This document shows positions 8,457 to 19,734 of a stretch of 38,618 bases of DNA, one piece after another. Under the pieces are notes generated by a model. It made no database searches. It was not told the DNA's origin and saw nothing but the letters and a program-made list of their open reading frames with translations. Origin of the DNA: Patescibacteria group bacterium. GTDB lineage: Bacteria > Patescibacteriota > Minisyncoccia > UBA10092. Within the stretch, counting starts at the first letter, position 1. Each line of letters begins with the position of its first letter. The translations under genes and the position numbers were made by a program. The stretch lies in NCBI GenBank assembly GCA_043812515.1, contig JBDRMC010000001.1:1-38618 (forward strand), read 5' to 3'.

Positions 8457-9109
8457 ATGGCGAAATCATTATTAAGATTAAAAGCAATAAAATTACGGAC
8501 ACGAGGAAAAAGTATTGGGACGATAGTACCGTTAGTTTATGGTGCGGAGATATTGAGTTAACCAAGGATCTGACTATCAGATTATTAGCCAATAAGATGC
8601 TCGGATTGCGTCTTGGGCAATTAAAAGGCGCTGTGGTTCAAAAACAAAAACGATTAGACAAGATTGCCAAATACGAGAAAGAGGGCATAGAAAGATTTAG
8701 AAATATGTCAGAAGATGCATTTTTTATCGCAGGGGTAGCTTTGTATTTAGCTGAAGGAACAAAGAAAAGCGGCAGAGTAGAACTTGTTAATCCCGATTAT
8801 AAAACCTTAAAATTTTTTATTAATTGGCTCGCTAAATTTTTCCAAATAAAAAAAGAGCGACTAGCTCTCTATTTAACCATTAATGCGGTCCATAGGAATA
8901 GAGAGTTGGTAGTCAAAAAATTTTGGGCAAAATGTTTTAGTACTTCTCTTTCTCGGTTTAGAAAAACTTTTTTTGTTGAAACAAAACAAAAAAAGATCTA
9001 CGCAAATCATAATAACTACTACGGCACCTTAGCTGTTAGTGTATTGAAAAGTAGAGATTTATTATATAAAATCAATGAGTTAATAGTGGGGCCATTGCAT
9101 TCTATATAA
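8457..9109 (+). pseudogene. HTH + LAGLIDADG-like protein, frameshifted near 8524
   Basis: ATG 8457 frame reads MAKSLLRLKAIKLRTRGKSIGT; another frame continues STVSLWCGDIELT into ORF 8597..9109 carrying IAGVALYLAEGTK. Confidence 0.65.
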
Positions 9110-9113
9110 TAAA

Positions 9114-9186
9114 GCCGGCGTAGCTCAGTGGTTAGAGCGGACGTTTCATAAGCGTTAGGTCGGAGGTTCAATTCCTCCCATCGGCA
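9114..9186 (+). tRNA. tRNA with CAT anticodon (elongator Met; Ile2 not excluded)
   Basis: Cloverleaf: GCCGGCG acceptor, TAGCTCAGTGGTTAGAGC D arm, GACGT-TTCATAA-GCGTT anticodon arm, GGAGG-TTCAATT-CCTCC T arm; no initiator hallmarks; CCA not encoded. Confidence 0.92.
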
Positions 9187-9190
9187 CAGT

Positions 9191-9265
9191 GCAGTGGTAG
9201 CTTAGCTGGCCTAAAGCGCCTCCCTGTCACGGAGGAGACCGTGGGTTCGAATCCCATCCACTGCG
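9191..9265 (+). tRNA. tRNA-Asp(GTC)
   Basis: GCAGTGG/CCACTGC acceptor, CCTCC-CTGTCAC-GGAGG anticodon arm, GTGGG-TTCGAAT-CCCAT T arm, G discriminator. Confidence 0.95.
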
Positions 9266-10162: not shown

Positions 10163-10561
10163 TTATTTATTTAGATAAGTAATAGTTAATTGTAAAACTG
10201 TTGCAAACGAAGCCCATAGCAAATACGGAATTTGGATATATGCAATCCAGCGCGCATGCGGATAAATGGCCGCCATCGCCCAAACAAGCGTGCCTAAAAT
10301 CAACAAAATATCAATTGCCGCTAATAAATTATTTTTGAGTCCGAATTGCAAATAAGTAAAAGAAAAATTGAAAATAAGATTGAGGATAAATGGCAAAGCA
10401 ACCATAAATGGAATTTGATTCCGCCAGACCATATAAAACACCTTGCCAAAAGATAAGGCCATCAAAGCGTAAAGAAAAGTCCACACCGGGCCGAAAAGCC
10501 AGCTTGGCGGCGACCATGTCGGCTTTATTAAAGTTGAATACCAATTATACGCGCTGTTCAT
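10163..10561 (-). CDS. tspO: TspO/MBR tryptophan-rich sensory protein
   Basis: WYSTLIKPTWSPPSWLFGPVWTFLY and PYLLWASFATVL. Confidence 0.93.
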   Translation of the reverse strand: MNSAYNWYSTLIKPTWSPPSWLFGPVWTFLYALMALSFGKVFYMVWRNQIPFMVALPFILNLIFNFSFTYLQFGLKNNLLAAIDILLILGTLVWAMAAIYPHARWIAYIQIPYLLWASFATVLQLTITYLNK

Positions 10562-10581
10562 ATTTTTATTATACCACTTTT

Positions 10582-10663
10582 TTATTTATCTCCGGAATTG
10601 ATGATGATGGCGACAATAATCCCCACAACCACCACCCCCGATTATTATTAAAATTGAAATCAT
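10582..10663 (-). pseudogene. frameshifted copy of the 26-aa hydrophobic peptide gene at 11552..11632
   Basis: Near-identical DNA with one extra C in the run at 10635-10639 (82 vs 81 bp). Confidence 0.6.
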
Positions 10664-10697
10664 GTTTTAGAGATTTTAATTTTTTTGGCCAACTTCT

Positions 10698-10735
10698 ACA
10701 ACATTCTCACATTCTGCAGAATGTGAGAATGTTGT
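10698..10735. repeat. 38-bp perfect palindrome, ATTCTGCAGAAT-core family copy 1
   Basis: acaacattctcacattctg|cagaatgtgagaatgttgt. Confidence 0.95.
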
Positions 10736-11013
10736 TAGTTGGGAAAGGTTTTAATAAACTTACAAAAGGTCTTGCCATAGGGCGAGAGAGAATGAGCGAC
10801 TTCCCTGCCCTGATACTTTTTATCAACCAGGCCGGCCTGAACTAACTTTCTGGTGTGTTCGGAAATAGTTTTCATATTGCAATCCAGCTCATCGGCAATC
10901 TTCTCTAAACTAATGCCATCGTTACTGGCAATCAAATTCAATATATCAATGCGACGGTGATTGGCCACACCTTTGAAATGTCTTTCCAATTGTTTAGCGG
11001 TTTTCGTTTGCAT
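10735..11013 (-). CDS. ArsR/SmtB-family winged HTH regulator
   Basis: FKGVANHRRIDIL...IADEL....TISEHTRKLVQAGLV. Confidence 0.88.
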   Translation of the reverse strand: MQTKTAKQLERHFKGVANHRRIDILNLIASNDGISLEKIADELDCNMKTISEHTRKLVQAGLVDKKYQGREVAHSLSPYGKTFCKFIKTFPN

Positions 11014-11045
11014 ACTCCCCCATTTTACAACACTTTAAAAAACAT

Positions 11046-11069
11046 TCCAACATTCTGCAGAATGTTGGA
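11046..11069. repeat. 24-bp palindrome, family copy 2
   Basis: tccaacattctg|cagaatgttgga. Confidence 0.92.
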
Positions 11070-11078
11070 GTATCTATT

Positions 11079-11477
11079 TTATCTTTCCCATTCTTTAATA
11101 TCTGGATGAAAATCAACTTGATGTTCAGGAATTCCTAAAGAAATTCCGTATTCTTTCGCCTCGTTATATTGTTCTTTGTTTTTTCTATCAATTTTGAAAA
11201 CTTTATCGCGAAAAATTATAAAATGCGTTTCGTCATTTTTAAAATCCGCGTACCAGGAACCGCCATGTCCCCTATCGAGCGCATGACTTATTTCCTCGGC
11301 AATCGCCTCCGCTTTATCTTCAGGAATTTCTACGGTATGCAAAGTCCACTGTTTAAGCCAAGGAGTTTCATGCTCGTTAGTCACCGGCTCAACTTCGGTC
11401 TCTAAAATCTTGACCTCTTTTAAAACACCCGTATTTTCTAAACTTTCTTCAATTATTACACCTTTATAATTTTTCAT
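11079..11477 (-). CDS. hypothetical protein (132 aa, soluble)
   Basis: Clean ORF, YKGVIIEESL...WTLHTV...WYADFKN; no function recognised. Confidence 0.8.
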   Translation of the reverse strand: MKNYKGVIIEESLENTGVLKEVKILETEVEPVTNEHETPWLKQWTLHTVEIPEDKAEAIAEEISHALDRGHGGSWYADFKNDETHFIIFRDKVFKIDRKNKEQYNEAKEYGISLGIPEHQVDFHPDIKEWER

Positions 11478-11520
11478 AAATTTATTTTCAAATTTCTTAT
11501 TAATTCAATACTATACTATG

Positions 11521-11552
11521 ACATTCTCATATTCTGCAGAATGTTGGAGTGT
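11521..11552. repeat. imperfect palindrome, family copy 3
   Basis: acattctcatattctgcagaatgttggagtgt; left arm resembles copy 1, right arm resembles copy 2. Confidence 0.88.
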
Positions 11553-11632
11553 TATTTATCTCCGGAATTGATGATGATGGCGACAATAATCCCCACAACC
11601 ACCACCCCGATTACTATTAAAATTGAGAGCAT
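11552..11632 (-). CDS. small single-TM peptide MLSILIVIGVVVVGIIVAIIINSGDK (26 aa)
   Basis: ATG..TAA ORF of 81 bp read by hand (below the ORF-track cutoff); second copy at 10582..10663. Confidence 0.55.
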   Translation of the reverse strand: MLSILIVIGVVVVGIIVAIIINSGDK

Positions 11633-11652
11633 GGTTTTATTGGCTGATTTTT

Positions 11653-11690
11653 ACAACACTCTCACATTCTGCAGAATGTGAGAGTGTTGT
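11653..11690. repeat. 38-bp perfect palindrome, family copy 4
   Basis: acaacactctcacattctg|cagaatgtgagagtgttgt; compensatory change relative to copy 1. Confidence 0.95.
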
Positions 11691-11703
11691 TATTGAGTTA
11701 GTT

Positions 11704-11766
11704 TTATCTTTCCCATTTTTTAATGTCCGGATGAAAATCAACAATCGCGCCTTTATAATTTCCTAT
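11704..11766 (-). pseudogene. internally deleted remnant of a homolog of 11079..11477
   Basis: Reads IGNYKGAI-VDFHPDIKKWER*, versus MKNYKGVI...VDFHPDIKEWER*. Confidence 0.75.
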
Positions 11767-11770
11767 AAAT

Positions 11771-12526
11771 TTATTTTTTAATTATTTCTTCAGATGAAAT
11801 GAATTGTTTTTGCACATCTCTCTCGAATTGCCGTAATTCTCCTTCAGCGATGATTTGATAATAAGAGTCATTAAGTTTATTTAACGGACAGAAAAAAAGT
11901 TGCTTTGGATTTTTTGGGCTTCCTCCTATTCCAATGGCAACGAAAACCGGCAATTTATGGCTTTCGCCATATATTCTGTAATTTTTTCCCTTTCTCTTAT
12001 CCCACTCTATGCCGCCTTTATAGAAATAGGAACGATATTTACATTCAACAGCCAACATCTTCCCGGTCTTAATATGCCGAAATGTAAAATCGGGGTTGGT
12101 ATCAGATTCCACATGACGTTTAAGCACTTTAGAAAAATCTCTCGTTTTATCAACGATTACCCAAATATCTGTCGGGAAAAGTAAGGCGATATATTTTTCA
12201 AATTGATAACCCTTCCCATAATAATCATAATAACTCCAAAGAAACGTTCCGAATACAATTGCCGTCATGAAATCTATAACGCGCCAAATGTTCACGCTAT
12301 AGAGATGAATCGGAATGATAGGATTAAAAATTATAATTGCCGCAATAAAGGCAAGGAGCCAATAAAATTTTCGGCTCTGATATACGGTATAGGCAAGAGC
12401 AATCCCACTCAAAGAAACCGCCCAGCGCAGTATCGCAAAATCTCCTTGATATAAACCTACAGACGCGACCAAAAGTATTATGATAACTCCCCATATTAAA
12501 ATGCGCAGTATAATTTCAGAATTCAT
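11771..12526 (-). CDS. membrane-anchored PD-(D/E)XK nuclease-like protein (DUF6804-like TM domain fused to nuclease)
   Basis: 4 TM with IIFNPIIPIHL....W..ID; then KG.QFE...NPDF...AVECKYRS. Confidence 0.7.
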   Translation of the reverse strand: MNSEIILRILIWGVIIILLVASVGLYQGDFAILRWAVSLSGIALAYTVYQSRKFYWLLAFIAAIIIFNPIIPIHLYSVNIWRVIDFMTAIVFGTFLWSYYDYYGKGYQFEKYIALLFPTDIWVIVDKTRDFSKVLKRHVESDTNPDFTFRHIKTGKMLAVECKYRSYFYKGGIEWDKRKGKNYRIYGESHKLPVFVAIGIGGSPKNPKQLFFCPLNKLNDSYYQIIAEGELRQFERDVQKQFISSEEIIKK

Positions 12527-19169: not shown

Positions 19170-19421
19170 TCAATAAATCCCTTGGCGGTGGCAGACGCGG
19201 ATTATGACGACAACTAAAATTCCTTTATAGACTTTATAAATTATTCTATAGGGCCAAACTCGATAAGAATAAAGGCCGGCTAATTCTCCTTCTAATTTTT
19301 TACCCGAAAAAGGATCAACCGCGATTAACGGAAAAACCGCCAAAATTCTTTTCCGATATTGAGCCGGAATTTTATCAAGCTCTTTTTGCGCTCTTTTTTC
19401 GAATTTTAGTTCCCACGCCAT
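19170..19421 (-). CDS. type II TA RelE/ParE-family toxin
   Basis: RAQKELDKI...P..GKKLEGEL.GLYSYRVWPYRIIY. Confidence 0.9.
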   Translation of the reverse strand: MAWELKFEKRAQKELDKIPAQYRKRILAVFPLIAVDPFSGKKLEGELAGLYSYRVWPYRIIYKVYKGILVVVIIRVCHRQGIY

Positions 19422-19734
19422 ATTTGTTTTTTCCTTTATCCGCTAAAATATAACCATGTTTGGCCATGATGTCGTCCAAAGTAGCCCATTTTTTATATTC
19501 GCCGGTTTTGATCGCGCGATCCGTTTCTTTAATATCTTTATCTAATCCTGGGCATTCTCTCATTACTTCCAAGGTTTCCTGTAAGGATTCAAAATCTTCC
19601 GCGGACATTAAAACGGCCTTGGGCCGGCCCTTTTCGGTTAAGGTGTAAAAATTATCGGGTTTTTGAACTTCTTCGGCGATTTCAAAAATTCTTTTTCTGG
19701 CCTCGGAAATTGATATGGTTGTTTTTGTATTCAT
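19375..19734 (-). CDS. type II TA Phd/YefM-family antitoxin
   Basis: ISISEARK......LTEKGRPKAVLMSAEDFESLQETLE. Confidence 0.9.
   Translation of the reverse strand: MNTKTTISISEARKRIFEIAEEVQKPDNFYTLTEKGRPKAVLMSAEDFESLQETLEVMRECPGLDKDIKETDRAIKTGEYKKWATLDDIMAKHGYILADKGKNKYGVGTKIRKKSAKRA

Follow-up and report, generated by a model that had tools for sequence, protein, structure and literature searches.

The contig JBDRMC010000001.1 of a Patescibacteria group bacterium (assembly GCA_043812515.1), analyzed here as one stretch of 38,618 nucleotides (the window), contains between positions 10,582 and 11,766 an array of small genes and palindromes. An original prediction, made from the sequence alone, had likened this array to integron cassettes in which each gene is closed by the same palindrome, and had named ArsR operators and REP-like terminators as alternatives. 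The assembly (G000) is a metagenome bin of 441 kb in 21 contigs, with 91% completeness and 6.41% estimated contamination. Comparisons with 401 genomes sampled across the class, and with 61 relatives in a separate count, indicate that the palindrome is probably the DNA site of a small ArsR-type winged-helix protein encoded within the array. Every gene of the array region lies on the minus strand, and the features are given below in the order of transcription.

11771-12526, minus strand: DUF6804 protein, first in transcription order.
11701-11790 (approximately), minus strand: remnant of gene X, 5′ and 3′ ends only, with an internal deletion, recognized by alignment to the copy of gene X on contig C7.
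11653-11690, unstranded: palindrome copy 1, perfect over 38 nt, arm type A/A′, from inverted-repeat comparison.
11552-11632, minus strand: gene for a hydrophobic peptide of 26 residues (MLSILIVIGVVVVGIIVAIIINSGDK), one of four copies in the genome.
About 11518-11555, unstranded: palindrome copy 2, degenerate (77% complementary), left arm of type B and right arm of type A′.
11079-11477, minus strand: gene X, encoding a conserved hypothetical protein of 132 residues with no Pfam family.
About 11037-11078, unstranded: palindrome copy 3, arm type B/B′ with one mismatch, behind gene X and upstream of the ArsR-type gene.
11022-11050, minus strand: promoter-like site TTGGAA-17-TAAAAT from a consensus scan, its −35 box within the right arm of copy 3.
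10735-11013, minus strand: winged-helix regulator of the ArsR/HTH_20 type, 92 residues (Pfam HTH_20 and HTH_5).
10698-10735, unstranded: palindrome copy 4, perfect over 38 nt, arm type A/A′, beginning at the final base of the ArsR stop codon.
10586-10663, minus strand: second copy of the peptide gene, frameshifted by one extra G.
10568-10576, minus strand: TGGTATAAT, an extended −10 box and putative promoter element, ending 6 nt ahead of the TspO start codon.
10163-10561, minus strand: TspO/MBR family membrane protein (Pfam TspO_MBR, 2.1e-29).

The order of the units, the remnant of gene X, and the duplicated peptide were all as originally described, according to the sequence and the alignments. 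The 12-nt core ATTCTGCAGAAT was found four times between 10698 and 11690 (at 10711, 11052, 11531, and 11666), compared with 0.15 copies expected by chance, and none of 100 shuffles of the window reached four copies, so that the four palindromes are real; the whole assembly contains a single additional copy, at C7:28365. Copies 1 and 4 are perfect palindromes that differ solely by the compensatory change, noticed earlier, of one C:G pair to T:A. The type A arm reads …CTCAC/ATTCTG (copies 1 and 4), and the type B arm …CCAAC/ATTCTG (copy 3). Copy 3 had been taken for a hybrid, but proved to represent a second, nearly symmetric type of arm; G005, a genome of the same genus, has this type at its upstream site. 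The hybrids are copy 2 (11520), which joins the left arm of copy 3 to the right arm of copies 1 and 4, and the copy on C7 (C7:28354), with the same B and A′ arms. Each palindrome begins within 13 nt of a stop codon, as proposed, the distances being 13 nt after the X remnant, 0-1 after the peptide gene, 7 after gene X, and 0 after the ArsR gene. Copy 2 and its peptide gene are together 96% identical to C7:28270-28386. In total, the assembly contains seven sites, five of type I and two of type II (see below), with one additional weak match on C10 taken as chance. The hexamer CTGCAG occurs 17 times in the 441 kb, five of these within palindromes, compared with about 60 expected from a rough composition estimate, and thus looks avoided outside the palindromes.

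The regulator scored above the Pfam cut-offs for both HTH_20 (36.3 bits; cut-off 27) and HTH_5 (29 bits; cut-off 22), and its sequence matches in the PDB include ArsR (6j0e, 3e-5), CzrA, and HlyU. A search for a conserved cysteine in 69 homologues found none, the residue being present at position 45 in 21 of 69 and at any other position in no more than 3 of 69. The protein ends about 12 residues past the wing, with a short tail; on the strength of these two features, it would fit, at most, the non-metal subgroup of the ArsR/SmtB family. A second regulator, 61% identical, is encoded at C4:11220-11489 and has type II sites on both sides (C4:11162 and 11506). Since this paralogue module (C4:11162-11539) is bracketed by its own palindromes (AACATCCTTATAAACTTGAGAAT…), the genome holds two parallel protein-site pairs.

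Association of the palindrome with the regulator was found to recur across the class. The 16-mer ACATTCTGCAGAATGT is present in 7 of the 61 relatives and in 36 of the 401 class genomes, with 1-7 exact cores in each of the latter, whereas the reversed control was found in 0 of 401. Homologues of the regulator (E ≤ 1e-8) were detected in 81 of the 401 genomes and are concentrated among those with the palindrome (27 of 36, compared with 54 of the 365 others; hand count of tables); these fractions understate the link, because the exact 16-mer catches only the TGCA-centred subtype. Pairs of sites spaced about 316-355 nt apart recur in many genomes, and the loci that were read have the regulator gene between them. 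The flanking sites were surveyed for the 69 best-scoring of 107 homologue places (60 fetched stretches and the earlier loci, 38 weaker or unfetched places being left out), with palindromes counted at a score of at least 8. Flanking palindromes total 96, with 49 lying upstream and 47 downstream of these 69 genes, and 11 of the genes, some of them at contig ends, have none at this score. By our own count, 31 of the 49 upstream palindromes are centred 35-40 nt ahead of the projected start, and 40 of the 47 downstream ones are centred no more than 20 nt past the stop codon, which places the left arm of the latter over or against the last codons. The palindrome includes the stop codon itself in several lineages, either as TAA in the arm …ATTCTAACATTC… or as TGA in the centre TTGA. 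The same-genus genome G005 keeps the order site-ArsR-site-TspO, and copies 3 and 4 of the window are syntenic with its upstream and downstream sites, respectively.

The type of site was shown to follow the phylogeny of the protein. Type I sites read AACATTC-NN-ACATTCT/AGAATGT-NN-GAATGTT, and an example of type II is AACATCCTTACAAACTTGAGAATGTAAGGATGTT. In a maximum-likelihood tree of the 69 proteins, a single clade (support 100/95) contains 19 of the 19 genes flanked by type II sites, and type I genes fall outside this clade in 38 of 39 cases. The type I label requires 3 changes on the tree, compared with a mean of 22.7 after shuffling (0 of 500 shuffles as low).

Downstream of the regulator, the most frequent neighbour is TspO, at 8 of the 69 loci, followed by a cluster with 5 members, while 63 neighbours are singletons. 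Palindromes in frame within TspO itself were found in six genomes, at loci L012 (G028), L041 (G137), L025 (G243), L019 (G301), L089 (G182), and L090 (G067). The in-frame site (QHSNILENVRML or QHPYILENVRML) falls in the loop that follows predicted helix 2, and its translation is QHSNIL(Q/E)NV(R/G)ML for type I (four cases) and QHPYILENVRML or QHPYILENIRML for type II (two cases). In all four genomes that have a regulator beside TspO, the type of the in-frame site is that of the neighbouring regulator; in G137, the two are linked by a distance of about 311 nt, measured from the site in TspO to the site at the regulator's stop codon. Genes with an NYN domain lie approximately 120-175 nt from a palindrome in three genomes of different families (C7:27655-28941 in this genome, L007 and L018, the other two genomes being G028 and G139); they are possible members of the regulon, or may mark a preferred neighbourhood.

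The upstream site appears to be part of the regulator's promoter. A TAnnnT box starts 20 or 21 nt past the palindrome centre in 23 of 49 upstream sites, compared with 1 of 47 downstream, and 30 nt past the centre in 13 of 49, again compared with 1 of 47. Mirror-image controls were flatter, with no more than 4 of 49 upstream sites at each of these offsets, though the +21 position gave 9 of 47 downstream. At the offset of 20 or 21 nt, the −35 box coincides with the palindrome centre (T-N-N-A-G-A, most often TTGAGA), and at the offset of 30 nt it is the TTGGAA of the right arm. The promoter-like site in the window, TTGGAA-17-TAAAAT, runs from 11050 to 11022. In the type II layout, TTGAGA-16-TATAAT, the start codon follows the −10 box by 6-9 nt, a spacing which suggests that the mRNA of type II-flanked regulators is leaderless. 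A site with dyad symmetry thus overlies the regulator's own promoter, a geometry that fits autorepression by a protein whose binding is predicted.

We therefore put at roughly 60% the probability that the 92-residue ArsR/HTH_20-type protein (10735-11013) has the palindrome as its cognate DNA site, and that the site-regulator-site unit is conserved across the class. Among the explanations considered at the outset, an ArsR operator is the one best supported by the comparative data, namely the bracketing of the gene, the overlap with its promoter, and the tracking of protein clades by site type. Copy 3 would cover the −35 box and the spacer of the regulator's own promoter, so that a dimer bound there would be expected to shut the regulator gene off. 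Copy 4, at the stop codon and ahead of TspO, may be a second operator, a hairpin terminator, or both. Binding, repression, a presumed effector, and the way in which the sites spread are all predictions at this stage. Segmental duplication, insertion, and deletion at or beside the repeats would have given rise to copies 1 and 2, the additional copies of the peptide gene, and the remnant of gene X, and the units of the array would not be cassettes moved by a dedicated recombinase. A literature search, which did not cover supplementary files, found no published description of the palindrome-ArsR pair.

The pairing of the two arms is also conserved, a proposal that had been based on copies 1 and 4 and that now extends to an ungapped alignment of 95 flanking sites. 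Standard pairs occupy 89.2% of cells, compared with 79.2 ± 0.6% in 500 shuffles, and double-sided changes occupy 200 cells, compared with 72 ± 13; no shuffle scored as high on either measure, although the aligned sites are related to one another and the shuffle counts are thus not probabilities. Slid partners were paired in 33-46% of cases, and compensatory changes were found in 14 of 18 pairs. Where the downstream left arm is CTAAC, which supplies the TAA stop codon (centre 7 nt after the stop), the non-coding right arm is GTTAG in 12 of 12 rows by our own count; the upstream sites are mostly CCAAC/GTTGG. Mismatches on the sense strand, at pairs 0-14, comprise 20 G:T and 17 A:C, near-equal numbers that give no sign of pairing selected in the mRNA alone and do not decide between pairing at the RNA and at the DNA level.

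Conserved pairing is what would be expected if the palindromes were terminators or REP-like hairpins that stabilize RNA, duplicated together with the genes and only incidentally linked to the ArsR-type protein. Copies 1 and 4 do form strong RNA hairpins (−27.4 kcal/mol, z −8.4, and −32.2 kcal/mol, z −9.2, respectively), copy 3 (−15.2 kcal/mol, z −2.7) scored as terminator-like on both strands, and many sites lie right behind stop codons and between convergent genes. Copy 2 gave no significant hairpin (−11.1 kcal/mol, z −1.2; 34 of 200 shuffles fold as well). Copies 1, 2, and 4, however, have no T tail. Terminators normally conserve structure and not sequence, whereas the 16-nt core is identical across many families of the class. 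The correspondence of site type with regulator clade, the fixed distance of the upstream copies from the −10 box and the start codon, the lack of any sign of wobble tolerance in the mismatch counts, and the location of some sites inside coding regions further argue against a purely structural role, which we regard as improbable.

Several observations nonetheless weigh against an operator of the ordinary kind. The downstream sites show no positioned −10 box. The total of promoter-like matches in the region, 12, is not above that of shuffles (10.6 ± 3.4), so that the weight of the promoter argument rests on conserved position and not on the single match. Nine of the 36 genomes with the palindrome, several of them 100% complete, have no homologue of the regulator by this query. 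Recognition of two half-sites by a dimer is not enough on its own to account for the conserved pairing of the arms, and a role for a hairpin or cruciform, or a copying process that equalizes the arms, must be added to explain the symmetry. Finally, some sites lie in places unexpected for an operator. In a survey of 29 loci around exact-core sites, comprising 39 sites, 6 sites adjoin a regulator, 12 lie between tandem genes, 5 between convergent genes, and 1 between divergent genes, 14 are within mechanically called open reading frames (ORFs) of at least 90 residues (several of which are probably spurious), and 1 has one side unknown; hence, among the 33 sites away from a regulator, 5 are between convergent genes and only 1 is between divergent genes. 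Host genes were confirmed by Pfam for at least five sites, and comprise TspO three times (as TspO-Gmad2 in G301 and G243, and as TspO in G137), HsdS, the specificity gene of a type I restriction-modification system (G137), and a class-V aminotransferase (G242). The Methylase_S specificity gene of G137, which holds its palindrome at L041:873-906, is directly upstream of the regulator module. The palindrome in the aminotransferase, a cysteine-desulfurase-like gene (L040:1492-1525), is in frame, encodes FYSNILQNVGMP, and coincides with an insertion of 9 residues relative to the orthologue in the present genome. A plain operator model leaves both the selection on arm pairing and this dispersal into unrelated places unexplained.

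Comparison of the array with related sequences revealed that the order of its units is variable. In G005, the order is a gene like C12:13468-14314, site B, ArsR, site A, TspO, and a region like C7. Gene X and the peptide are missing there, the 103 nt that hold the second peptide copy (10571-10673) are absent, and the window ceases to be syntenic with G005 at the outer boundary of palindrome 3. On C7, the order is NYN, peptide, hybrid palindrome, NYN fragment, X, and peptide. Relative to the X-peptide junction of C7, which has a single TAAAA, the window carries an insert of 398 nt, which is bounded by two TAAAA repeats and consists of palindrome 3, the ArsR gene, palindrome 4, and 22 nt. At the junction between the X remnant and the peptide gene, 63 nt are inserted, which contain palindrome 1 together with a flank resembling that of palindrome 4. 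Contigs of relatives were also retrieved from Logan, from four runs at a likeness of at least 85%; they are short, mostly single contigs at low depth, and joints with fewer than 31 letters on one side (10733 to 11042 and 11069 to 11520, palindrome to palindrome) were not counted. In runs X1 and X2, from two studies, TspO is joined to palindrome 4 without the peptide (10572 to 10699). A 949-nt contig in run X4 has X-peptide-TspO without the ArsR block (10663 to 11702), and one contig in run X3 has DUF6804-peptide-X without the remnant, palindrome 1, or palindrome 2 (11637 to 11770).

Unit order is thus not fixed among G005, C7, and the contigs of relatives, and the break points lie at or beside palindromes. 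Together with the hybrid arms and the 398-nt block, these forms establish that rearrangement takes place at the palindromes or right beside them. If a B site upstream were to cross over with an A site downstream, the product would be precisely the B/A′ hybrid that is present at 11520 and on C7. Of the palindrome-mediated gene shuffling that had been proposed, the rearrangements at or near palindromes, the hybrid arms, and the 398-nt block are retained, but a dedicated system resembling that of integrons is not.

The possibility that the unusual arrangement is an artefact, produced by mis-joining at the 38-nt palindromes and at the 57-nt segment that is identical between peptide copies, was also considered. 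The repeats exceed common assembly word sizes, the bin has the contamination noted above, and no public run holds the stretch that would bridge the repeats, the best containing no more than 12% of the sampled words; nor was any RNA data set listed as holding it. The array units, however, have diverged (84-96% identity) and thus are not collapsed copies. G005 independently has site-ArsR-site-TspO, and the adjacencies DUF6804-peptide-X, X-copy 3, and X-peptide-TspO are found independently in contigs of relatives. Mis-assembly is accordingly very improbable as an explanation for the array.

The dispersal and the rearrangements raise a further idea, which extends the operator reading instead of replacing it, since the protein would still be predicted to bind the sites. 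The unit of palindrome, winged-helix gene, and palindrome might be a minimal mobile or selfish element that leaves solo palindromes behind, and the segments between palindromes would then be deleted, duplicated, and inverted by recombination between repeats, which would yield an array without a dedicated integrase. Consistent with such spread, the protein tree does not follow the families of the organisms: the families f18, f43, and f14 are dispersed over it, and the members of near-identical pairs belong to separate families. G028 and G088, which are of different families and are each complete in a single contig, can be aligned over only about 1.3 kb in 20 kb (82-92% identity), and this shared stretch is made up of part of a membrane winged-helix gene, site-ArsR-site, and TspO. 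The 398-nt block between TAAAA repeats, the 949-nt contig that is without it, the B/A′ hybrids at 11520 and C7:28354, the insertion-like copy in the aminotransferase, and the sites between convergent genes point in the same direction. On the other hand, a winged-helix protein of 92 residues has no known catalytic fold, and no transposase family was found beside the module. Copy numbers are low, both here and in the 36 genomes with exact cores; the TAAAA repeat is a single case that may reflect microhomology in AT-rich DNA; and the evidence from reads consists of the low-depth contigs described above. The site in TspO, moreover, is conserved across clades and matches the type of the neighbouring regulator, and so looks selected and not random. 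We consider a self-spreading module to be a tentative and rather unlikely extension. Still more speculative, and somewhat less likely, is a fuller scenario in which the module moves horizontally among ultra-small bacteria, its solo sites settle in frame in housekeeping genes and seed recombination that forms cassettes without a recombinase, and the protein both guards and regulates the gene bracketed by its own sites. Seeding of this kind would be favored by the symmetry of the sites, because two copies of a perfect palindrome are direct and inverted repeats at once.

Gene X and the peptide gene were examined as candidates for cassettes that are generally linked to the palindrome, and this idea was rejected. 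Gene X has a 91% identical paralogue at C7:29055-29453, which is not followed by a palindrome, and a palindrome of this kind is missing within about 1.5 kb of its homologues in G019 and G035. The remnant retains a 5′ part (11748-11780) that aligns with the 5′ end of the C7 gene at 91% identity and a 3′ part (11701-11742) that aligns with its 3′ end at 95%, and reads ATA at the position of the start codon. No Pfam family matched gene X; it has 2764 homologues, and among the matches listed, with identities of 67-91%, every name given was "hypothetical". The names of these homologues span several candidate phyla, yet the gene was found in just 3 of the 61 relatives, and this patchy but highly conserved distribution suggests horizontal transfer. 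The four copies of the peptide gene (11552-11632, 10586-10663, C7:28275-28352, and C7:29466-29546), one of which is frameshifted, differ mostly by synonymous or conservative changes in our reading of the alignment, and no occurrence was found outside this genome among the sequences compared. Two of the copies, one in the window and the fourth copy on C7, are followed by the TGGTATAAT box just ahead of the next start codon, which suggests that the peptide and the box form a small repeated unit of gene and promoter.

An integron-like array, in which a site-specific recombinase acts on the folded palindrome and moves each gene, with its 3′ palindrome, as a cassette, would account for the units of gene and palindrome, the hybrid arms, the different orders in relatives, and the conserved pairing of the arms. 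No recombinase family was found among the 18 window proteins scanned against Pfam, in agreement with the original prediction. The search for a linked tyrosine recombinase or HUH/RAYT enzyme that it had called for was negative as well: across the assembly, PF00589 (Phage_integrase) has a single match, a tyrosine recombinase on another contig (C21:15294-15842), and PF01797 (Y1/HUH transposase; Y1_Tnp) has none in this 91% complete genome. The sites, furthermore, are near-perfect, conserved in sequence, and tied to one family of ArsR-type genes, and gene X lacks a following palindrome in G019, in G035, and on C7. The integron reading, with its attC-like site, was thus rejected as highly implausible. 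A REP/RAYT reading was likewise dropped, given the absence of a PF01797 match, the winged-helix nature of the flanked gene, and the low copy number. The cassette-like look of the array would instead be a local product of duplication, insertion, and deletion beside palindromes.

At lower coordinates than the array lie genes for YceG, an amidase, and two tRNAs (9114-9186 and 9191-9265), the tRNA genes being preceded by an ORF of 170 residues without a Pfam family (8597-9265 for the whole segment). Accessory-looking genes begin right after the tRNAs with DUF1003, TspO, the array, and DUF6804, and further ones encode two proteins of the metallo-beta-lactamase fold, large unknown proteins, and a Phd/YefM antitoxin. 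The Phd/YefM-type gene (19375-19734; Pfam, 6.1e-14) adjoins an ORF of 179 residues without a family match. A search of the window and five loci against Rfam returned only the two tRNAs (9114-9265) and no RNA family at the palindromes. An rRNA origin of the GC-rich loci with solo sites (L036, L037, and others) was considered and dropped, as Rfam gave no support.

Transcription control is almost unstudied in bacteria of the candidate-phyla-radiation type, which are hard to grow. The predicted regulator-site pair can be read from sequence, and its regulator has homologues in about a fifth of the sampled class genomes (81 of 401). A defined site of 34-40 bp offers a practical entry point, since protein and DNA can be synthesized and tested in vitro. 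Four features go beyond textbook operators, namely the site in the regulator's stop codon, the third site in TspO, the compensatory changes in the arms, and the insertion-like copies in genes, and they raise the question of whether a repressor's binding sites can propagate in the manner of selfish DNA and remodel small genomes. For annotation, the "cassette array" of this window should not be labelled an integron or a mobile cassette system.

The array can be compared with four known systems. It resembles integron arrays in its small co-oriented genes, each followed by an inverted repeat, whether perfect or imperfect, and in a unit order that varies among relatives. Neither IntI, attI, nor Pc was identified, however, in the Pfam scan of the 18 window proteins and the PF00589 search of the assembly, and whereas attC sites are imperfect and variable in sequence, the repeats here are near-perfect, have a core that is identical across families, and accompany one gene family and not every cassette. 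REP/RAYT systems (REPINs) share with the present one a gene flanked on both sides by a palindromic repeat, solo repeats behind stop codons and between convergent genes, and the conserved hairpin potential of the repeat. The differences are that no HUH/Y1 transposase is present here, the flanked gene encodes only a DNA-binding domain, the upstream copy is part of the gene's promoter, and exact cores number 1-7 per genome, in contrast to the tens to hundreds of copies of REPs. Rickettsia palindromic elements are short palindromic repeats of a reduced genome that also occur in frame within protein genes, as some copies do here; the present sites are much shorter (34-40 bp), are accompanied by the gene of a putative cognate DNA-binding protein, and form part of a promoter. 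Regulators of the ArsR/SmtB family (HlyU and CzrA/SmtB types) share the small winged-helix protein with HTH_20 and HTH_5, the structure matches, and the site with dyad symmetry over the gene's own promoter. The protein described here differs from them in its length of only 92 residues, its short tail, and its lack of a conserved cysteine. SmtB and CzrA sites are 12-2-12 repeats, whereas the site here is a near-perfect palindrome of 34-40 bp composed of four ACATTC hexamers, with arms that covary, a second copy within or against the regulator's stop codon, a third inside TspO in some genomes, and extra copies that are dispersed, some of them within genes.

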